Source: Eledone cirrhosa
Lineage: Eukaryota
DNA length: 64,000 nucleotides
Assembly: GCA_964016885.1 (NCBI GenBank)
Contig: OZ024753.1
Coordinates: 4,030,001 to 4,094,000, forward strand
Direction of reading: 5' to 3'
Position 1 is the stretch's first letter; each line of letters opens with the position of its first letter. Below are positions 5,301 to 62,589 of the stretch, one piece after another. The notes under the pieces were generated by a model that did no database searches, had not been told where the DNA came from, and saw only the letters and a list, made by a program, of their open reading frames with translations. Both the position numbers and the translations under genes were made by a program.

Positions 5301-5458
5301 ATAATTGTTTCTACTTTTGGCACAAGGCCAGCAATTATACCAGTGTATTACTGGTGCTTTATTTTATTGATCCCGTAAGGATAAAAGGCAAAGGTAACCT
5401 GGGTGTAATTTGTCAGACCGTAACGGGCTGCAAAGCATGGTGTCCGACCTTCTACCTT
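5301..5458 (-). mobile_element. tRNA-derived SINE, short-3' subfamily
   Basis: Reverse complement of the copies at 34784-34974 and 61045-61232 (tgtttctacttttggcacaaggccagcaatta...cccgtaaggat). Confidence 0.85.
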
Positions 5459-5580: not shown

Positions 5581-5631
5581 CATACACACTCAGACCCATA
5601 TATATGTAAATATGTATCTATCTATCTATAT

Positions 5632-5719
5632 AATTGATGTGGGATGCTTAAAGCGTCCGTATGCGGTAGGCTGTTTGAGCACTCGATGCTCTTACAGAGC
5701 AGAGTATAATATGTGATAT
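5632..5719 (-). mobile_element. collapsed copy (tail only) of fold-back family A
   Basis: aattgatgtgggatgcttaaagcgtccgtatgcgg...agagcagagtat matches 16253-16329 and is followed by tgtgatat; flanked by TA-rich repeats. Confidence 0.8.
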
Positions 5720-10165: not shown

Positions 10166-10372
10166 TGATAGAATGAGTAAAGCGTCGGACAACATGCTTA
10201 GCGGTATAGAGTTATGGCCCTTTGCGTTCTGAGTTCCAATCGCACCGAGGTTAGATTTGCGTTTCATCCTTACGGGGATAAGTAAAGTACCAGTAATGCA
10301 CTGGGATTAATTTAGTAGACTTTCCATTTACCCCTAAATTGATGGCGTTCTGCCTCAATCAGAAACCATTAT
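10166..10372 (+). mobile_element. tRNA-derived SINE, long-3' form
   Basis: catgcttagcggtat..ttctgagttccaat..ccgaggtt..tttcatccttacgggg..agtaccagtaatgcactggg..agaaaccatta. Confidence 0.85.
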
Positions 10373-12086: not shown

Positions 12087-12226
<140 letters not shown>

Positions 12227-14229
12227 AGATTTGAATGGATACAGTTTAGTTGAAAGGAATTTATTGACACGTGTTTCTATAACAGTTACATAACCTAAAA
12301 CAGCTATCTACAAACTTTTAGTTATGCAGACATTCAATATTTCAATATTATTGTTTACTGTCATTTCATCAGAATAATATTACTGAGGACCTATTTAGTT
12401 TTTATAGAGAATATTAGGAGGAAGGGGTGAAGTTGTTAGAAGAATAGTTGAAGGAGTGGTTTTTCGATAGCAGTGAGAATTCTTGGTGGCAGTGATTAAT
12501 TAGATTCCCATCTGTTGTTTTGACATTTTTTATAGAATATATTATTGGTTATTTTTCTAAATCTATAGAATATACATATATAGCTGTATGTGCGTGTGCG
12601 TGTGTGTTCATTTCCATATATATATATGTATATATATATATTTAAAATATGTGGTGTTATAAAATGCCGTGTCGCTTCCTTTTAGAGGTTCTGTGACCGG
12701 TATGCAATTGAAATGTGGTGCCATTCCCGAATACTACCATACTTAACTTACACAGATTCCCCAATGTTATTTTTGTACAATTGGGTAATTTGGGAAATAG
12801 AAATCCATATTGATGTGTCACTCCATTCTATAAACTTCATCGGAAATTAATCTATTTGTTCTAAGATAAAACATATGACCCAGGGGGACAACAATCACTT
12901 AAACTACATAGTTCACTCCTCATGGCTTCTGCCACAGCAGCTATAGTATATTTAAGTCTGAGTATAAATATTAAGATATAACTAATACATATAATTCCTG
13001 GAAAAATCACCGTCCAGACAATTCCCCTCAGCTGGCGATTTCTTTCATAACCGTACAGTATAGTAAAACTAGACACGATGACTGCCGGTGCAGGGAAAGT
13101 AGCCTTAGAATACTTGGTATTGTCACAGAAAGAGTTATTACTCAACTGATAGCAGGTTGACTGATAAAATGACAAGTCAGTCAATCATATTGATGGCATC
13201 CCCACAGCCCCGGCAGACAGAATAGAGAAGGCGTTTCCCCGGAAGACGGCAAGGGAGACGCGTTATATTTACATTTAATATATTGAATAATTTATTAATT
13301 CGTTCATTGCATAAATAATTCCTTCCCAAATTCATATTCAAATATATAAATTATGAAGGCAATAATAGTTGCTCATCAACATGTAAAATACGAGTTCCAA
13401 TAAATTTCATTTGTTATTGAAAAGACTCAGTTAAAACAATTTTTAAGTGAACGCAGATGGAGAAATTATTAGGGCCCATATGCGTTACTGATAAGTGTTT
13501 ATATAAATTCATATTGGGGACATCTGTTTCGTAGCGGGGCAATTCCTTCTATAAATCTTACAACACCGAAAAGTAAAAAAGGTCACGATAGAAAATATCA
13601 TTGCTGCATACATCCTAATTGGCACACATAAAATAAGGTAGAATTTGATTTATAGAGATGATTTAAGCAAGCTGAACCAGCTTGACAATTTATTGCACAA
13701 CAGGAATAAATTCATGTATAGAAGATGATCACTATCATATTACATTAACGACGTCACTGTGTTTTACAAGAACAAATATCTTAACATGAGCTATCAAACG
13801 CCAGCGATTAAAGATAGAGAATAAATAGAGGAATATAAACATAGTTTATAAACACATACTTTGGGAATATTAATGAAAATGATATTTATTTATACGAAAA
13901 AACAAACAATCACTATTTGGATATTCTGTAATCATTTTTTATAAATTATAGTTTTCACAAATGACTCACTTCTTATTGAAATAAACTTCCATTCACATTA
14001 ATATTTGATAAATTACGTACTAAAATGTATATGCATACATATTTTCATCCATTTATAAAGACAAATAAAAAAAAATAAAAAAATAAATATATATATATAT
14101 AGTCAAATGCGATAACTCATTCCCAGATATAGAATTCCGTTTTAATCACTCTTCACAACAACTTTCACAATGTTTTCACGGTTATCTTCAGTTCTACATC
14201 ATATTACTAGATTAATACACTTGTCTATT

Positions 14230-15130: not shown

Positions 15131-15637
15131 TAGACAAATAATCAGGAACTCTTTTAAATATAACGCTAACCGCATGCTAGTAACCTCCACTTAGCTCGCA
15201 ACATTTAAATATAATTATAACATTAATATATAATTTGGAGTACGTGTATGTCTTCATGCAGATATAAACGTACTCCCAAATGTATGCATGTTGTAATGCC
15301 TGAAAACAGAGTGGTAACTAATCTACGAGTTATCGAGAATGAAGTGTATATGCCAATCCTTTCATGTACCTCCTAATTTAAATGAAGTTGTTTTACTCTG
15401 TTATCTTATTCTATCCTGACAAACTGCTTCCTTTGGGTAGATGAAATGGTTAACTTCTTTCTAACTGATATCAGCTACAATCTAACCATCACATAAATAA
15501 CTTTGTCACATATTCCTGACAGGAATGTCTAGCGGAGAATTCAATGTTGTTTCGAATTAATGTTATACCTGTCAATATTCAGATGATATAATAGCTTCTT
15601 TTGAAGGAAACATGATACACCGACATCATCGACCTCG

Positions 15638-16252
<615 letters not shown>

Positions 16253-16595
16253 AATTGGTGTTGGATGCTTAAAGCGTCCGTATGCGGCAGGCCGTATGAG
16301 CACTCAATGCCCTCGTAGAGCAGAGTATGATATCACAGAAAAAAGAGAATCAGTGTTGCGACGAAAGGAATTTATTGGACATATTACAAATGTTTCCCGG
16401 GCGACCAGCTCGAGGCACGATCGATACGATGATCATACCTGACTCTGAAATCAACACGGTCCTGGGATACGTTTCGATTCTACGAAGCAGATTTTCCATA
16501 TCGATCGTGCTTCGAGCTGGTCGCTCGAGAAACATTTGTAATATGTCCAATAAATTCCTTTCGTCGCAACACTGATTCTCTTATTTCTGTGATAT
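16253..16595 (-). mobile_element. fold-back element family A (tail + 97-bp inverted arms + 72-bp spacer) in (TA)n
   Basis: Arms 16330-16426 and 16499-16595 with ~4 mismatches; tail 16253-16329; homolog at 55324-55670. Confidence 0.85.
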
Positions 16596-16624
16596 ATATA
16601 TACATATATATATATAAATGTGTG

Positions 16625-16727
<103 letters not shown>

Positions 16728-16738
16728 ATATGTGTGTG

Positions 16739-16769
<31 letters not shown>

Positions 16770-29457: not shown

Positions 29458-29617
29458 TTTTGAGTATATGTTGGTTGTATATGATTCCAGTTCCTCAGTG
29501 AAATAACAACCCAACCAGGAACTGGGTATATCAGAGTATTGACAATAGTATACACCTAAACAACACATGTACTTGTCTATACCAACATATGTACTTGTCT
29601 ATACCACACTAATTCAA

Positions 29618-29672
29618 ACTGCCTGAAGAGGTCACATTCAAAGATGGCTGTCACTGAAATATATATAGCAGT
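29618..29672 (+). ncRNA. minimal type-I hammerhead ribozyme motif
   Basis: ACTGC-CTGAAGA-[ggtcac..gtcact]-GAAA-T-atat-A-TA-GCAGT-AATAAA; predicted cut after 29667; within a ~270-bp cassette between TA tracts. Confidence 0.75.
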
Positions 29673-30589
29673 AATAAACGAAGCTAAATTTTAAACATTT
29701 GACTTTTTATTTAACTTTATTTTATATATATATATATTTCCACGTGTTTGTGCGAATGTGTGTGTCAGTGTGGGCGTGTATGGCTGTCCGTATGTGTATT
29801 TGTGTGCGGTCCAGTTAAACCATTTTGAATTATGCTAAATGTTATATTCCATTATACGCCTCTTATATTCAGTTCCTTGCCCTTATTAATGATTCAAACT
29901 TTTCTCCGCCTCATTCAACGGTGACACAGTTATATTAAAGCATGTTGTCAAAATTGTGATTGAGATACACACTATATGATTACTATTCATCTCAAATATA
30001 CTGAAATGCTTACACCTAATCAGATTGCTCATTAAACTGGTAAATCTCACTTGTCAAAAATAAACCAACTTAAATTCTTTATTACAGATATTCTATTTGT
30101 CAAGTATAAAAATATAATAGTGTCATTCACCACAATCTCATATAGTAATACCTCCTACATTTTCAATTTGAAAGCATATGTTGCATTTGCATTTTTATAC
30201 TTAGGTAATTATAGTACTTCATATTGTAGTAATCCGAATATTATCACAACAAGGAAGGAAACAACTTCGTACATATAATCACAATTCTATTTAACATATC
30301 GCCAATCAACAAAACCTAAATGTACTCATATCACACATTTACAAGGAAAATATGAATAAAAAGTGAAATAAACTACAAGTAGGCAGATAGGTTATGTAAG
30401 TTCCGTATAATTAAATCTCTATATGCAGAAGCTTTGGTAAATCATATCAATCAAACGATACATATGCCTGTGAGTAGTTGATATTGTTTTGTAGTTCGTT
30501 AGTGTGAAGATTGCAGTTAAATTAGGATCTGCTCCCCCAAAATAAATATACTACATATTGATATAAAATCACTTACATATCTACTTACA

Positions 30590-32341: not shown

Positions 32342-32346
32342 TCAAA

Positions 32347-32993
32347 GAGAAGAAAAACAAAAAGAAAGGAAGAAGAAGAAAAGTCAGCGTTAATATCATG
32401 CTACAAGAAAAACGACAGAAAGGAAGAGGAAGAAAAGTTATCCGAGTGAGATCTCAGTCGGAATGGCTGACACGTGGTTAGAATGGGCTGGCCGGAGTCT
32501 GCAGTCGCCGCATGATGTTTGACTGCTAAACAAAGACATAATCTTTACTCTACATCCCACTCGGATAACTTATAGAGGATCTCTATAATACAATTAAAGT
32601 TTCTTCATAAAAGACTCTTTCTTTAACTAAACCTCGCAACCAAAACCTTAAAATTTTTTTTAAACTGTTTAATTTTCAATTTTCTAATTTTTTAATTTTA
32701 TAATGTTAATCTTTAATTTTTGTAACTTCATCCTATAAATCTAAACAAAATTTAACGTTCCCATCTTCTGCTCACACATTATATCATGTAGACCCCAACT
32801 ATATATACCTCTGTTATAATATATACATCTGTTAAGATACGGGTCCTTTAGAATAACTTTTTTCGCGGCAATTCCTGGCCTGACTGTAGCATAGCATTAA
32901 TGCTGACTGTTCTTCCTCTTTCTTTCTGTCTTTTTTCTTGTAGCATGACATTAACGCTGACTTTTCTTCTTCTTCCTTTCTGTTTTTCTTCTC
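32347..32993. repeat. ~90-bp purine-rich inverted repeat with ~470-bp spacer, abutting the LINE fragment
   Basis: 32347-32438 is the reverse complement of 32906-32993 (gaagaagaaaagtcagcgttaat(a/g)tcatgctacaagaaaa). Confidence 0.85.
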
Positions 32994-33149
32994 ATTGACC
33001 GGGAGGTTAGTAGCAGACTATAAGCTTTAGCTCCCTCACCAGATAGCATTAAGTAGGCCGAATGGGCAGCACTTGAAGGCGACCGGCTAAAGTGGAATAT
33101 GCTAGATGGTCGCTCGTCCTCGTGTCTATGATGTATAACACACACACAC

Positions 33150-34783: not shown

Positions 34784-34974
34784 AGGGCGGTGGATTGGCA
34801 GTATCGGTAGAGGGTCGGACGCCATGGTTTCCAGCATAGTTACGTCCCTTTACGATCTGAGTTCAAATCCCGCCCAGGTTGACTTTGCCTTTCATCCTTA
34901 CGGGGTCGATAAAATAAAGTACCAGTAATGCACTGGGTAATTGCTGGCCTTGTGCCTAAAGTAGAAACAATTAT
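34784..34974 (+). mobile_element. tRNA-derived SINE, full length, short-3' subfamily
   Basis: A-box-like tggcagtatcggta, B-box gagttcaaatcc, core gactttgcctttcatccttacggggtcgataaaataaagtaccag. Confidence 0.9.
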
Positions 34975-35117: not shown

Positions 35118-35384
35118 TTATTATTATGTAATAAACAACATAAGGCAATTAATCCATTTACCAGTGGTTTCTTAAAAGCAAAAGGTTTTGCTTTCAATCC
35201 TCAGAATGAAAAAATCCTGGTTTGTATATTGAATTTGGATCTTAAAAAAACGTTTTTTAAGATCCAAATTCAATATACAAACCAGGATTTTTTCATTCTG
35301 AGGATTGAAAGCAAAACCTTTTGCTTTTAAGAAACCACTGGTAAATGGATTAATTGCCTTATGTTGTTTATTACATAATAATAA
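35118..35384. repeat. near-perfect 267-bp spacerless palindrome
   Basis: Arms complementary except a 1-nt A-run difference at the centre (cttaaaaaaacgttttttaag); left end abuts a TA run. Confidence 0.95.
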
Positions 35385-36681: not shown

Positions 36682-36788
36682 GAGTGTGTATATATATATG
36701 TGTGTGTGTGTATGTATATATATATATATATAAATATATATATGTATGTATATATATATATATATATTCCTTCGTTATAAATATATAT

Positions 36789-36974
36789 AACGAAGGAATT
36801 TTGGTAAGGAACCAGATGGACAATAACGCACCAGAGTACTCAATACTTAGGGTGGTAGAGTGGGAAATAGGAAAAAAATATGACCCCGACGGCGGAGTTC
36901 AAGCCGTTTCGACGGCAGAGCTCAAGCCGTCGAAACGGCTTGAGCTCTGCCGTCGAGGTCATATTTTTTCCTAT
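36789..36974 (-). mobile_element. fold-back element family B (tail + ~50-bp inverted arms) in (TA)n
   Basis: Arms 36867-36916 and 36926-36974; tail 36789-36866; TA on both sides. Confidence 0.8.
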
Positions 36975-38989: not shown

Positions 38990-39663
38990 GTACAGTGCAC
39001 ACTACATGCGAATGAGATCCACTGAAGCAGGAAAAGATGTTTAAGTATCTCGGGCCGTGTTCATGAGTGATGGAAGGAAGGAAGATGAATTAAGTGCAAT
39101 AATTACAGGAGCTTGTGCAGTTATGTGCCAGCCCCAGCATTGAGTAGTCAGAATAAAGGAGGTAAGCGTAAATGACAAACTATCTATCTTCAATTCGGTA
39201 TTCATGCCAACCCTCACCTATGGTCATGAATCATGGGTTATGACAGAAAGAATACAATCGCGAATACAAGCGGCTGGAATAGGGCTCCTCGGAAGGGTCT
39301 TCGGAGTAGCCTTATTCGAAAGACTGCATAGTTCGGAGATCATAGTGTCACTCCGGGTAGAGCCACTACTTCGCCGAATTGAGACGTCACAGGCCCGATA
39401 CTACAGACATGTGGTCAGAATGTCTCAGGAAAGAATCGGGGGACAGATTTTACGGACAAAACCAACCAATAGGAGGCTCAGGGGTAGACCACAAGCAAGA
39501 TGGTTGGATAACATCCATGCGCTTGGCTAATCTCGCTTGGGGAATCCACCCGGAACAGTTGGAAGCGGTTGCTTCTAACAGTACCCGCTGGAATGAGTGT
39601 TTGAGGACTCTGCCCCCACGACTCTCTCAGGAAGAAGGAGGGGAAGAAGAAGAAGAAGAAGAA
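38990..39663 (+). pseudogene. 5'-truncated RTE-superfamily LINE (RT C-terminus) with (GAA)n tail
   Basis: FKYLG, MPTLTYGHESWVMTE..RIQAA, RRLRGRPQARWLDNI; ends gaagaagaagaa. Confidence 0.88.
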
Positions 39664-42042
39664 CGCTGTTTAATGTACCAGTACATTAGCGATTTTAAGA
39701 ATATTTTCAAGAAACGTGTTAAAACGAATTTAATGGTTTATATGTTATTGAATAAGTGGTTTATTGCTTATCAAGAACCGAATGAAAGGACCCTACCGGA
39801 TTGTAGTTTTCCCCAACACACGCACGCCTACCCTTACACAGTTGTATATGTATGCTAACATAAAAGCATATATATATATATATATATACGTATAGAGGTC
39901 CTGACATACCAAGGAACATGAATATACACTTGTTTGAAGAAACATACACACATGCATCCTCATATATACATATATGCACATATCCATAAATACACTCACT
40001 TGAATACAAAAATAACTCTACATATAAATGCACACGCATACATACAAACAACTCTAAACAAACGAATAATTACCAAACGAGAAGAAAGTTTTAAAAGGAA
40101 GGAGTGTGTGTGTGTGTATATGCGTGATGTCGTTTCGTTGGTGCGTACGCGTTTGTATATCAGCCTATGTGTGGATGCACGTGAATGTGTGTGGTGTGGG
40201 TGGAGGTGAGAGAGTAAGAGAGATAGAAAGATAGGAAAATGGAGACAGAGGGAAGAAGAGAGAAAAAGTGAGAGGTGGAAGGAAAATAGCGAAAAATATT
40301 CCTGTAATTAATTAAATTCTGCCTCTTTTGAAGTAGCGCACTATTCTCACATATGAAAACGAATATTTGTTCAAGTCCTTTTCTCTCTCCCTCCTTCATG
40401 TTCTATCACGTAGCCGGTAATGCTGTTTTTTTTTCTTTTGGTTTGTTTCATTTCATTACCACGACTCCTCTCACAATTTCATTAATTATAACTCTGCCAA
40501 TACACTCCTATCTCAATGTATTTGTTAAGAAACATCATGCATGACTGGAAATGCTTCCAAGCAAAACTTGACTACATTTTATTATGATAGATAATAATGA
40601 TGGTGGCGCCCCTGGTGGGTCGGTTATCGAAGTATTTTAGGACGAAAAATATGACGGAGAGGATAATTATTGAAGGAGGAAAGTGTGTGTGGCGGTAGGT
40701 CTGAGGGACGCGAAGGCTAAATGATATAATGGTTGGTAAATGGTAAAGACGAATCGTATATTGGCGCCTATACTACTAAGATACAAATTAAAACGGTTAA
40801 ACGGTGATAAATATAAGAAAATGTAATGCGACGGTGATATGATGAACGAAGAATATGCTAGAAAGAATATGCTGACTGTTACTATTACCCACACAATAAT
40901 CTTCACAAATACATTCAACATCACATCAATAAATACTCCCATTATCGCACGCTCTATTACGATTACTATCACCTGCTCTTTCGATAATATTCAAATTCTA
41001 TACTTGTGCCAAAAACATGACAATAAAAAACAAACGAACCCTCTGAAAACAATCCTTTATAAAATAATAAGGATCATCTAACTTGAAATACTGAACGATA
41101 TATATATGCGAATATCATATGGCTATAAAATAGATTGCAATACGTATCTACTACTGAATTTATTTTCCACAGAAGGTTTAAATGTAAGGTTAACTATGTA
41201 ACATATACCATCGAATGGAATAGAGATTATCTACCTTTCATGAGGTTATTGAAAGGAGTACCAATAATTTTCAAAAAGTTTCATACATTTTGAGGGGTTC
41301 CAATATATCGGCACTTTTCTTTTACATGACTGACACCTAGTTTCTCAAACTAGAAAAGATGAACATAGATTTGGGGTTTATATTTATCAATTAAGGATAC
41401 ATAACTAAATACTCACTACAGGCATAATTTGTTTACTATTCCATGAATGTTAACTATACCAGCCTAAATATATTCATTTCAAATATAGGTATACAGACAA
41501 CAATTATGGGAAGTGTTAGTAAATTAAAACTGCTCAAGGACCAACTGACAGATGGAAAATTGAACTGAGCAAGATTTAAACATTGAATGTAATGATTCGG
41601 AACATATACCACAAGGTATTTGTGTCCATGTTCTGAATAATCCTGCTAATCGACAGTTGTCAGAAAGGGTATAATTAATATAATGATTTCTAACTTATTA
41701 ATTGCATGATGGAAGTCCAATATTAGGTATCTCCTTAAATATATAACTACAAACCACATTTCTTTATAGCTTTCTAACGTTTTGGTCATATATTAATAAA
41801 CATAAGTCACTAATTCTGAGGTAGGTTCAGTGAGACATGGTGCGTAACAAGCTGTCCCTCTGAATAACTGGTACGGATAATCCGACAGTCCTCCAAGTAG
41901 AACAGTTTCCATCAACCCTCCTTCACTGACAGGGACACGTCAAACCTATGTCCTGATAAATGATAGTTACTCAAGTATACATGACATAATGATTGCGATA
42001 TGAAATCATTAATTATCTGGCAATGCTGTGAATTGAAGACTT

Positions 42043-42930: not shown

Positions 42931-44043
42931 ATAATTAATTTCTGGAATCTTAACACTTCAACAAAACAAAGACCTCTAAATGTGAACAAGCTAATAAATG
43001 ATGTATAATTGAACATTTACTCCTTCTTTTCTCCTATCATTACATCTTCTATATCTTTAGAATAGAAAGAAAAATCTAAATAAACAAATAAAGACACACA
43101 ACTGAAACGTTAATTAAAATAATAATTTGTTCTTTATTATTTTATTGTTTATTGGTTTTCATCAAAATCCTTTATCCGTTTATTTTCATTTAGAGAGTCG
43201 AACATCAAACACCAACACTACTAACACATATTAAACCTTCTGTTAACCTTAAACATAGCAACGATTAGTAAGTTTAAGTGGGGATATTAACTTCACCCCG
43301 GTCAACCACTTGTTTTGTCAACAGCATTTGGTATTGAGAATGCAATGAATTAGAAACGACGCAAGTAATTAAAATCCACGAAATTCTTCAAAACCTCCTT
43401 CACCAGCCCCATGATAATTCTATCTTGTAATCCTCCACAGTTACACAACCAATACGTATATAGGTATCTTATCATCAATCTTCGCACGCATGTATATATA
43501 TATATATTTATCCTTACCATCTCAATAGGAAATATTTTCACCTCCATTTCCACCTCACGATCTATTAGTATTCCTCCATTGATATCATCCACACCCGATC
43601 ATCCCGACTCCCCAACCGTGCCACCTACGTTCCACACTCTCACACATCTATACAATCAACCACGAACTTCCCCAAACATTTATCATTCTGTGTTCTACAC
43701 TTTTCTCGAACATGTGATCCTTCTCTTCACCCACCATCTCAATTACTTCAACTTCCAAAATTCATATCGAAAAGCTTTCAAATGTTTATTCTTTAACATA
43801 CCGTGTACTAGATATACATAATACACATACCTATATGTATACAGCTATGTCAGAGCGAGAACTTAAATATGTTTACACACACACAAACACACGCATATAT
43901 ATATATACACACAGTTCCAGAGTTAACCAAACTTGAATTGAGAGATGGAGATAGGAGAGGAGAGATTGGTGAAGGTATTAGATAGGAGAGGAGAGATTGG
44001 TAAAGGCATGTGCTCAATGTGCAATAAGCAGTGGGAAGCATTA

Positions 44044-44214
44044 TATATACATTTAATATAGAATTGGCTTCTACAGGACTAGAACTGTTTCATTCAGGAG
44101 AAATGGTCTACAGTTCTAGTCCTGTAGAAGCCCTTTCTATATTAAATATTTATATTCTGCCATGATTTGAGTATCTTACTTACTCTGGTTACCCCCGATT
44201 AAACCCGGGATAAA

Positions 44215-45409: not shown

Positions 45410-45470
45410 CCCAATGCTCTGATACCATCAACACTATAAACACAGAGCTGGCATATCTAAGTACTGACTA

Positions 45471-45526
45471 ACTGTCTGATGAGGTCATAGCCATTCAATG
45501 GCTATCATCGAAATATATATAGCAGT
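45471..45526 (+). ncRNA. minimal type-I hammerhead ribozyme, canonical core
   Basis: ACTGT-CTGATGA-GGTCATAGCCAT-tca-ATGGCTATCATC-GAAA-T-atat-A-TA-GCAGT; predicted cut after A45521; AATAAA immediately after. Confidence 0.88.
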
Positions 45527-45567
45527 AAATAAAGGATTATGAGTTCATGCAATTGACTTATGTTTCG

Positions 45568-45604
<37 letters not shown>

Positions 45605-45605
<1 letters not shown>

Positions 45606-45650
45606 ACGAAGGAGTTGTGGTAAGGAACTAGATGTTATACATTTTCCTAT
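45605..45650 (-). mobile_element. collapsed derivative of fold-back family B
   Basis: aacgaaggagttgtggtaaggaactagatg matches 36789-36818 and attttcctat matches the family B distal end; flanked by TA. Confidence 0.7.
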
Positions 45651-46112: not shown

Positions 46113-46299
46113 TTTTAGTTTTAGGCACACATTGATTTGGCGAGGAGAACGTTGATTATATCCACCCCAGTACTTGACTGCTACTTTATTTTATCGACCA
46201 TGGAAGGATGAAACGCAAACCTGACCTCGACTGTACTTGAACTCAGAATGTAAAGGGACGTAACTAAAGACTTTACGATTCTGTCAATTCACTGCCCTT
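46113..46299 (-). mobile_element. tRNA-derived SINE, long-3' form
   Basis: ccccagtacttgactg..ttattttatcgacc..ggatgaaa..ttgaactcagaatgtaaag..gattctgtcaattcactgcc. Confidence 0.85.
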
Positions 46300-54380: not shown

Positions 54381-54384
<4 letters not shown>

Positions 54385-54563
54385 GAATATATAAGAGAGA
54401 TAAACACACATATATATATATGTGTTCAAATAGTAAGGGCCCAGATGATTTGAACACATATATGTATATATGTGTTTATTTCTCTCATATATTCAATTAT
54501 ATTACACGGCCCGGAAAAATTCTTTTACTTGAGCTATTTATTTTTGAGTTTCTAAAATACTTT

Positions 54564-54744: not shown

Positions 54745-54912
54745 GTAATAATAATAAATTTGAAGACTAAAATCCAAAGAGGGCTCGATAAGGGTAAATA
54801 TATATCAAATATAGAAGAACTGTAGAGCAAATATTTATTAAAATAACAGATTAAAGTTGAAGCAAAGAATCGCTGCTTTGCTTAAATTTTAATCTGTTAT
54901 TTTAATAAATAT
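54745..54912 (-). mobile_element. fold-back element family E (tail + 37-bp arms, 8-bp spacer) in (TA)n
   Basis: Arms 54831-54867 and 54876-54912; the same arm sequence occurs at 53557-53591. Confidence 0.75.
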
Positions 54913-54955: not shown

Positions 54956-55009
<54 letters not shown>

Positions 55010-55014
<5 letters not shown>

Positions 55015-55235
55015 AAATAAGATTTCGCTTCAAGCATAGCTTTATACAAATATGTATAGAGATTTCGTATTCCTAAAGAAACACGGTTTTAGGAAGCCGT
55101 AGCTATGCAAACACCGGGGCTAACGCCCTCTGGTAGTGTCCAGCAGAAGGAAGGAGGACAACCGTCTATGAATTTCAGGCTTGACTGTGTTTGCATAGCT
55201 ACGGCTTCCTAAAACCGTGTTTCTTTAGAAATACG

Positions 55236-55243
<8 letters not shown>
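55010..55243 (-). mobile_element. fold-back element family F (tail + 57-bp arms, 72-bp spacer)
   Basis: Arms 55058-55114 and 55187-55243 with one mismatch; between (TA)n and (CT)n(TA)n. Confidence 0.8.
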
Positions 55244-55323
<80 letters not shown>

Positions 55324-55330
<7 letters not shown>

Positions 55331-55670
55331 AGAAAAGAGGAGAATCAGTGTTGCGTCGAATCGAATTTATTGGATCTATTACAATCGTTTCTCTGGCGAC
55401 CAGCTCGAGGCACGATCGCGTGATGATCGAACCTGACTCTGATAGGAAAATCTGCTTCGTAGAATCAAGACGCATCTGAGGACCTTGCGATTTTCAGAAT
55501 CAGGTTCGATCATCACATCGATCGTGCCTCGAGCTGGTCGCGAGAGAAACGATTGTAATATATCCAATAAATTCCATTCGTCGCAACACTGATTCTCATT
55601 TTTTCTGTGATATCATCGAGTGCTCATACGGTCTACCGCATACGGACGCTTTAAGCATCCAACACCAATT
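55324..55670 (+). mobile_element. fold-back element family A, second copy in opposite orientation
   Basis: Arms 55324-55442 and 55494-55613, 51-bp spacer, tail 55614-55670; homologous to 16253-16595. Confidence 0.85.
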
Positions 55671-57935: not shown

Positions 57936-58499
57936 TGTAAATCCGTGCCTGCTTTTCGCATATACAAGGGCAATTCCATTTTGAAGAGACACTGCTATGC
58001 ATAGGCGAATGCTAGTTTTCCTCATAACGCATTGCCTAATTTTGCACCTTGGAATCTACACTTTCATGTGCAAATCCTTGTTCAGTCAAAACCAAACGAT
58101 TTCACTAACTTTACATCCCATTGAGGTTGCTATGCTACTGTGTTTTTATTAGCAAACCACATACACGTTACCTTTGTTAATCCAGTAATGATTAGAGCAC
58201 GATTCGTTTTATAATCAACCGTAGTACTTTCGTTCAGACTTTATACCCATTGAACACGATATTTATTGAAATTTAATTAAATAAATGTTGGTGCTGGTCT
58301 CCTTGCACAACAGATGAGGAACAGATTCTTCTTATCCCTAAATGAGTTAATCCGAATTAAATGTTATGTCTTGTCATATTAGATCAATTACTTTAACCCT
58401 AACATTGCGAATGAATTATTGTTTATAAATTATTAATTCAACATAAGTTTGCTGGAGCTGGTGCAATAATGTGCCAGTTTCAGCATTAGGTAATCAGAA

Positions 58500-59045
58500 G
58501 AAGGAAGGGTGGTGTAATAGTCAAACACTCTATCTTTGATTCAGTATTCGTGCCAACCCTTATCTATGGTAATGAATCTTGGGTAAATCAAGAAAGGATA
58601 CAATGACAAATACAATCGGCTGAAATGCGGTTCCTCCGAAGGGTCCTCGGAGTAAAGCTATTTGATCGAGTGCGTAGCTCGGAGATCACATTCACTCCAG
58701 TTATAGCCGCTACATCTCCGAATTGAGAGATCATAGATCTGAGATTAAGTATATGGGGTTTAGAATATTCAAAGAAATTGCTGACATATTTCACAGGCAA
58801 AACCAACCAGCATAGGACCCAGGGTTAGACCTCGAGAAAAATGTTTGGATAAAAGCCATGAGATCGGTTGGTCAGCATTGAGGATCTAGGCTGATCATTT
58901 GGAGACGGTTGCTTCCGACAGGACCCGCTGAAAGAAGTGTTTGAAAATTCAGTAGATACGACATATGTGGGTGATGACGAAGAAGAAGAAGAAGAAGAAG
59001 AAGAAGGCGACGAAGAAGAATAAGAAGAAGAAGGCGAAGGAGAAG
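58500..59045 (+). pseudogene. second, more decayed copy of the RTE LINE 3' end with (GAA)n tail
   Basis: Colinear with 39180-39663 (tattcgtgccaacccttatctatggtaatgaatcttggg..ccgaagggtcctcggagta..cggttgcttccgacaggacccgctg). Confidence 0.85.
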
Positions 59046-60981: not shown

Positions 60982-61280
60982 GTATATATATATTATATAT
61001 ATGTATATATATAATATATATATATGTATATATATAATATATATCGGTGAATTGGCAGTATCGGTAGAGGGTTGGACGCCATGCTTTCTAGCATAGTTAC
61101 GTCCCTTTACAGTCTGAGTTCAAATCCCGCCGAGGTTAACTTTGCCTTTCATCCTTACGGGGTCGATAAAATAAAGTACCAGTAATGTACTGGGTAATTT
61201 GCTGGCCTTGTGCCAAAAGTAGAAACAATTATATATATGTATATATATATATATGTATATATATAATATATATATATATG

Positions 61281-62416: not shown

Positions 62417-62589
62417 GTATCGGTAGAGAGTCAGACACCATGTTTGCAGCATAGAGTTATGACCTTCACGGTCTTCAACTCCCAATGACGTTAAATTTGC
62501 CTGTCATCCTTACGGCGTCGATAAAATAAAGCACCAGTATTGCACTGGGGTAATTGCTGGCCTTGTGCCAAAAAGTAGAAACAATTATT
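62417..62589 (+). mobile_element. tRNA-derived SINE, short-3' subfamily
   Basis: gtatcggtagag..tcatccttacggcgtcgataaaataaagcaccag..taattgctggccttgtgccaaaaagtagaaacaattatt. Confidence 0.85.

Follow-up and report, generated by a model that had tools for sequence, protein, structure and literature searches.

A (TA)n-associated, probable Penelope-like 3′ module in Eledone cirrhosa with a predicted long-helix hammerhead and an inverted arm probably formed at each integration

Family A beside known Penelope-like insertion units

The insertion unit of Penelope-like elements (PLEs) pairs a direct pLTR with a neighboring inverted pLTR that is shorter, and may bear a tail at one end only (PMC3846280; PMC8557442). 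A self-priming explanation for this layout is in print (PMC3846280), and how the tandem and inverted termini arise is listed among the unsolved questions (PMC8557442). The purified PLE protein of the anole, a predicted dimer, cleaves and extends each of the two target strands, and its synthesis begins at two positions, one at each border of the tail; the same in vitro study left the steps past first-strand synthesis unvalidated and, in its main text, the inverted pLTR unexplained (PMC11167929). In Octopus vulgaris, PLE families occur in abundance and are in part recent (PMC13282606).

The window analyzed here is a 64,000-nt stretch of Eledone cirrhosa contig OZ024753.1, consisting of microsatellite-rich animal DNA of which ~14% is masked as simple repeats (GC 23-38%). 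It contains two full copies of a repeat designated family A, at 16 kb and 55 kb, as well as a micro-insertion of the same family, and (TA)n adjoins all three. The 16-kb copy lies on the minus strand and reads inverted arm (16595-16499), spacer from GGAAAA, direct arm, tail, and (TA)n, while the parts of the 55-kb copy correspond to these and lie on the plus strand:

15639..16252: left (TA)n target tract
16253..16329, minus strand: 77-nt optional 3′ tail that meets (TA)n with CACCAAT; the tail end at 16253 is the proposed outer reverse-transcription start site
16330..16426, minus strand: direct arm, the 3′ part of the pLTR, ending CTGTGATAT; 16330, the pLTR end, is the proposed inner reverse-transcription start site
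16371..16376, minus strand: AATAAA just 3′ of the hammerhead, with a T-rich stretch next to it, which together we take to be poly(A)-signal-like
16378..16473, minus strand: predicted type I hammerhead, its helix II region 63 nt long, with the core at 16466-16460, GAAA at 16396-16393, and cleavage expected after 16385
16427..16497, minus strand: spacer, the unduplicated 5′ part of the pLTR, starting at the recurrent 5′ point GGAAAA (16496-16497)
16499..16595, plus strand: 97-bp inverted arm, a 5′-truncated copy of the pLTR that meets the direct unit head-to-head
16596..16766: right (TA)n target tract
55324..55442, minus strand: inverted arm of the 55-kb copy, 119 bp
55445..55613, plus strand: pLTR of the 55-kb copy (spacer ~55445-55493, arm ~55494-55613)
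55614..55669, plus strand: tail of the 55-kb copy, with a ~20-nt deletion
5630..5719, minus strand: family A micro-insertion, a tail (5630-5712) followed by the inverted 7-nt pLTR end GTGATAT

In this form, family A can be read as a PLE 3′ module in (TA)n, made up of a pLTR with a hammerhead, an optional tail, and an inverted 5′-truncated pLTR. It shares with endonuclease-positive PLE units the head-to-head shorter inverted pLTR, the one-end tail, the short junction overlap, the pLTR hammerhead, and the (TA)n target, toward which the Neptune, Hydra, and Naiad types of PLE are likewise biased. It differs from full units of that kind in having no ORF between the repeats (the family A unit is ~245 nt and the 16-kb stump ~340 bp) and in its 77-nt tail, compared with 30-40 nt in published units (PMC3846280; PMC8557442). 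The tail lies beyond the direct arm, on that side only in both full copies; it bears on the mechanism and was absent from the sequence-only reading of this locus. Family A also resembles PAc, a Poseidon-clade PLE of the green anole, in the two ends that bound the tail, the AC-rich outer end, the AT-rich target, and boundaries that lie away from the hammerhead cut (PMC11167929).

A Pfam search of 25 of the 85 open frames of the window returned no reverse transcriptase (RT) or GIY-YIG frame (one unrelated match fell below the cutoff), and exact-motif scans of metagenome, viral, and prokaryote genome collections gave 0 matches. Because no RT or endonuclease frame was found, the assignment draws on the non-coding features, and from these we judge PLE membership of family A to be very probable. 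A MITE or foldback DNA transposon is a poor fit: in place of constant symmetric terminal inverted repeats, there are arms of 97 and 119 bp, a one-sided tail, and variable joints. PLE stumps of the family A kind may be mislabelled as MITEs.

A predicted hammerhead with a long helix II

Family A carries a predicted minimal type I hammerhead motif in its pLTR. A relaxed scan finds it on the direct strand of both full copies, with both cores and three helices, each copy being partly decayed. The 55-kb copy has an intact core (CTGAGGA at 55476-55482) and 9 bp of helix II with only 2 contiguous helix I pairs, a combination equalled in 6 of 2000 shuffles; the 16-kb copy keeps a 6-bp helix I with a decayed core and is equalled in 1 of 2000 shuffles, under a core pattern that was relaxed after viewing. 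A strict scan for an intact core plus a helix I of at least 4 was passed by neither copy. Across the reads, the core G at 16464 is the family norm (312/314 and 171/181 reads), and U4 (16465) is present in roughly half of the reads or more. Of 64 cells of the named structure, 58 are paired, whereas slid controls reach 27-42%. Covariation amounts to one two-sided change in two sequences and is not significant (228/500 shuffles), free folds form no hammerhead junction (z −1.15 and −0.22), and folding of the whole unit is no better than that of shuffles. Rfam gave 0 matches at gathering level in the window and 4 weak, unrelated matches at E 0.48-7.6; it also missed a clear hammerhead at 35.2-35.3 kb. 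The relaxed scan found five further matches in the window (29623, 35204/35298, 45476, and 12372), each near (TA)n.

Comparison with described PLE hammerheads reveals both likenesses and differences. Hydra-clade PLEs, including Hydra-1 of Octopus bimaculoides, share with family A the (TA)n setting, a hammerhead ~100-200 nt from the 3′ end, an additional nucleotide behind the first core and ahead of GAAA, and a short helix III with a 1-2 nt loop (PMC8557442 supplement), and the format also fits the minimal PLE hammerheads of PMC4209133. The Hydra clade is set by protein (a C-terminal endonuclease lacking CCHH, and RT phylogeny), whereas family A is known from its non-coding parts. Ten short motifs gave no relevant match in the published Naiad, Chlamys, and Hydra consensus sequences, where line breaks can hide matches. 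Naiad PLEs are without a canonical hammerhead, whereas family A has both cores and three helices, and the PAc ORF starts inside helix II (PMC11167929), a place where family A has no conserved open frame. A published hammerhead core search used a 7-17 nt spacer (PMC8557442), which the 63-nt helix II form would escape. While the layout of family A is itself already known, this predicted hammerhead is a previously unnoticed and unusual form, and it raises the possibility that a ribozyme is present in some of the PLE families recorded as lacking one.

The possibility that the recurrent 5′ point is the ribozyme cut was rejected. The predicted cut (16385) lies 112 nt downstream of it, and therefore the fixed point is not a ribozyme product; ~16497 is either an RNA 5′ end or a strong RT stop.

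Arm variants, inversion joints, and the formation of the inverted arm

The four arms of the two full copies were compared over 98 shared columns. They split by copy at 6 sites, by side at 0, and crosswise at 0, in line with the earlier claims that the two arms of each copy are alike (TTGGACATATTACAAATG at 16 kb versus TTGGAT(A/C)TATTACAATCG at 55 kb) and that diagnostic variants are shared within a copy. The remaining variable columns comprise 9 private to one arm and 2 mixed. Mismatches number 4/97 between the arms of the 16-kb copy and 8/97 between those of the 55-kb copy, with 7-14 between copies. The geometry that had been described was likewise confirmed: the inverted arms measure 97 bp (16499-16595) and 119 bp (55324-55442), both finish TGTGATAT against (TA)n, and both spacers start GGAAAATCTGCTTCGTAGAATC (16497 downwards; 55445 upwards), the common start reaching 4-5 nt further (GATA/GATAT) than had been recognized. 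Spacer and arm end overlap by a microhomology of 2-4 nt, namely GATA at 16 kb and 2-3 nt at 55 kb.

These observations were extended by comparing 16249-16503, at 80% likeness, with four of the six runs listed by one search, in which no RNA data set appeared; the four consist of two contig sets from one sample, which may be the sample behind the window (2254 and 2450 records), and two RAD read sets from other samples (2803 and 2610 reads). Family A is very abundant, with a summed contig depth of ~200,000 against 6-18 for a single listed contig, a depth that is no copy number. Minority alleles are shared by both 16-kb arms (A at 16390, ~6% of contig depth; A at 16426, ~18%). The table of joints, which holds the best-supported rows without single-start RAD piles, lists 13 inversion joints, all opposite-strand and none a direct tandem. 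The fixed point 16496-16497 is used by 6 of the 13, with partners 16309, 16311, 16407, 16426, 16442, and 16495 (in the window copies the partners are 16426 and ~16448); the 16495/16497 joint is a near-perfect hairpin. The other 7 listed joints lie off it (16284/16403, 16292/16369, 16309/16450, 16323/16425, 16330/16426, 16348/16389, and 16389/16450). One arm is confined to the tail in 7/13 listed joints, and (TA)n occurs in loose ends before 16330 in 46 and 32 contigs and in 157 and 228 reads.

Several features of the data set how these joints are to be read. The short side is <30 letters in 3/13; the 10 listed joints with at least 30 letters comprise 5 at the fixed point and 5 elsewhere, so that the "fixed template end" of the sequence-only reading holds for one half of them and fails for the other. 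RAD reads start at AATT (16253 and 16369), giving a biased view of which joints appear, and since detection is biased by contig assembly as well, position counts were not used as a test. Read-end pile-ups at 16253 and 16369-16372 were rejected as proof of element ends, both being AATT sites in RAD libraries. The 16292/16369 joint coincides with an AATT site and could be a chimera made by ligation, the 16426/16496 joint could stem from the locus in the window itself, the joints involving 16425-16426 and 16450 fall where the window reference differs from most copies, and target-site duplications are unreadable inside (TA)n.

Taken together, the by-copy grouping, the rare shared alleles, the varying partners, and the lack of a recurrent joint among those listed support the earlier proposal that the inverted arm is made afresh, and we consider it highly probable that each insertion forms its own. 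The main alternative on this point is that the inverted layout is inherited from source elements, as a subfamily-specific foldback or MITE-like form, and that hairpin-driven conversion and deletion later shape the arms. Long inverted repeats do tend toward conversion and deletion, and several of the alleles that group by copy belong to subfamilies and are not private mutations (those at 16366, 16391, and 16399 segregate at 27-60%), both of which suit this alternative. Yet no listed joint exceeds 3 read starts or single-contig depth (7-15) among the thousands of records compared, in which the spacer (16464, 16473) is covered by 56-70 starts, and an inversion inherited from a master element is disfavored because its junction would be expected to stand out in reads. 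The ends are also asymmetric, with the tail on one side, deletion from the window layout cannot give tail-bearing inverted arms, and the 4-8% divergence within a copy shows that its arms are not being equalized by conversion; inheritance of the layout is therefore improbable in our assessment. Slightly more improbable still is a non-LTR retrozyme identity, under which rolling-circle reverse transcription of a circular family A RNA would generate the copies and the inversions would be incidental. The ~245-nt family A unit with a type I hammerhead fits the 150-450 bp range and the short non-coding format of metazoan non-LTR retrozymes (PMC7229834), which are proposed to derive from pLTRs (10.64898/2026.07.22.740005). 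Retrozymes, in contrast, are head-to-tail tandems (PMC7229834; 10.64898/2026.07.22.740005), whereas family A forms solitary inverted stumps, with no head-to-tail tandem in the window, 13/13 listed joints opposite-strand, and unit boundaries away from the predicted cut (16385).

Formation at each insertion can itself be explained in two ways, and two very short pieces bear on the choice. One is the family A micro-insertion at 5630-5719, and the other belongs to an unrelated family, designated C:

36789..36974, minus strand: family C copy with the same layout, a ~77-nt tail, an arm, and an inverted arm ending TTTTCC against (TA)n
45604..45650, strand unassigned: micro-insertion of family C, in which 30 nt of tail adjoin an inverted pLTR end, the two pieces having no sequence overlap

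At 45604-45650, 34/38 letters match the family C tail including the TA edge, and the right end matches at 9/11 letters; TTTTCCTATA occurs in the window only at 36966 and 45642, that is, at 2/158 tract edges. The GTGATAT end of the 5630-5719 piece has only 3 informative letters, and TGTGATAT is found at 3/158 (TA)n tract edges in the window, all three of them family A.

Under the snap-back account advanced by the sequence-only reading, the same PLE cDNA, on reaching the template 5′ end, would fold at a microhomology and copy itself, one tail being lost at resolution. Such an account is possible and has much that agrees with it: a 2-4 nt microhomology at both window junctions, arms that share variants within a copy, the fixed point in 6/13 listed joints with its one near-perfect hairpin, a near-perfect palindrome of another hammerhead family at 35122-35380, and the self-priming argued for PLEs (PMC3846280). 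It is not, however, the simplest reading. Under snap-back, the copy would be expected to continue back across the tail, and an extra trimming step is needed for the arm to end at 16330. Moreover, the inverted pieces at 45604-45650 and 5630-5719 are not contained in the first piece and so were not copied from it, and snap-back alone cannot yield these non-overlapping joins. A further, weak hint against it comes from the private differences, 8/9 of which fall in inverted arms (sign test p 0.039), and from the 55-kb inverted arm, two variants of which are common to another RAD-read locus and not to its own direct arm; such differences and foreign variants may hint at a second template. Microhomology is no discriminator because it is expected under both accounts. 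On this evidence we regard snap-back formation as rather unlikely.

The reading that we favor, with moderate confidence, is that family A is the short-stump 3′ module of a (TA)n-targeting, endonuclease-bearing PLE whose inverted arm is made per integration, most likely by two-strand priming. In this model, the enzyme would nick both strands of the TA tract; one target strand would prime where the tail ends (16253), the other where the pLTR ends (16330); and the two cDNAs would extend toward each other, one often getting to the template 5′ boundary (~16497-16502) and the other halting at a variable point. Their 3′ ends would then join via 2-4 nt of microhomology, after which gaps would be filled. 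We infer a PLE enzyme, an RNA intermediate, two priming events, and one source RNA or source locus. Priming from both target strands, at two start sites, would directly explain the arm stop at 16330. The tail-only arms and the two micro-insertions lean toward two-strand priming over snap-back. Against two-site priming, the outer end of the long arm lies outside the joint tables, tail-only arms are also compatible with a snap-back that tails both ends, and deletion at a later time within a full hairpin could account for the micro-insertions and for the 5 joints missing the fixed point.

A comparable process is known from LINE-1 twin priming, in which both target strands prime on the RNA and the two cDNAs are joined head-to-head by microhomology, giving inversions without sequence duplication and with a random internal site. 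Family A differs in that its second site is fixed and its arms often overlap. A literature search that covered few subscription papers found no two-strand priming account of the inverted pLTR; the supplements of PMC11167929 may bear on this. We tentatively propose, as a broader possibility short of even likelihood, that the inverted pLTR would represent two primings from opposite target strands at two programmed sites, sometimes from two RNAs on a dimeric enzyme, and that family A and its neighbors may be thousands of natural records of it, the mobile form being a non-autonomous RNA of 245 nt that has a 5′ start of its own and a long-helix hammerhead missed by standard searches. Since both ends and the junction lie within 350 bp in numerous stumps, counting in one assembly can separate snap-back from two-strand priming. 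While the anatomy is known, abundant short copies make the open question of mechanism countable, and the mechanism offered here is a testable lead.

Other repeats of the window

The window holds further repeats in similar settings. The tails of family A and family C are both ~77 nt, and at 36768-36780 a family C tail end of ~10 nt stands alone between TA runs, facing the full copy. The 259-bp near-perfect head-to-head palindrome at 35122-35380 (98.8%) has a clean hammerhead per strand, with a 6-bp helix I and a 12-bp helix II, and is a young PLE-like stump of another family. A minus-strand hammerhead with an 88-nt helix II region, belonging to a second long-helix family, lies at 12224-12390; it adjoins (TA)n and has AATAAATTCCTTTC in common with family A. 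Two related minimal hammerheads, at 29617-29722 and 45470-45571, have a palindromic TATATA helix III loop, and each ends in (TA)n. Across four families, the predicted hammerhead cut is followed within a few bases, on the 3′ side, by AATAAA (16371-16376, 12260-12265, 29672-29677, and 45526-45533).

Adjoining the 55-kb family A copy, a third family at 55007-55240 consists of a ~50-nt tail, 57-bp arms (56/57 identical), and a spacer, and the scan gave no hammerhead in it. Inverted-repeat islands in AT-rich or (TA)n context at 44043-44155, 54839-54904, 15214-15297, 32342-32998, and 54382-54502 are likely to be more stumps of a similar kind. A 560-bp direct repeat pair (39108-39666 and 58454-59008) has 73% identity and no Pfam match in the frames scanned. 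Finally, a dispersed repeat of ~190 bp is present in at least six copies (5301-5456, 10177-10313, 34788-34974, 46160-46266, 61045-61232, and 62417-62588) and, as exemplified by 34788-34974, presumably resembles an octopus tRNA-type SINE.
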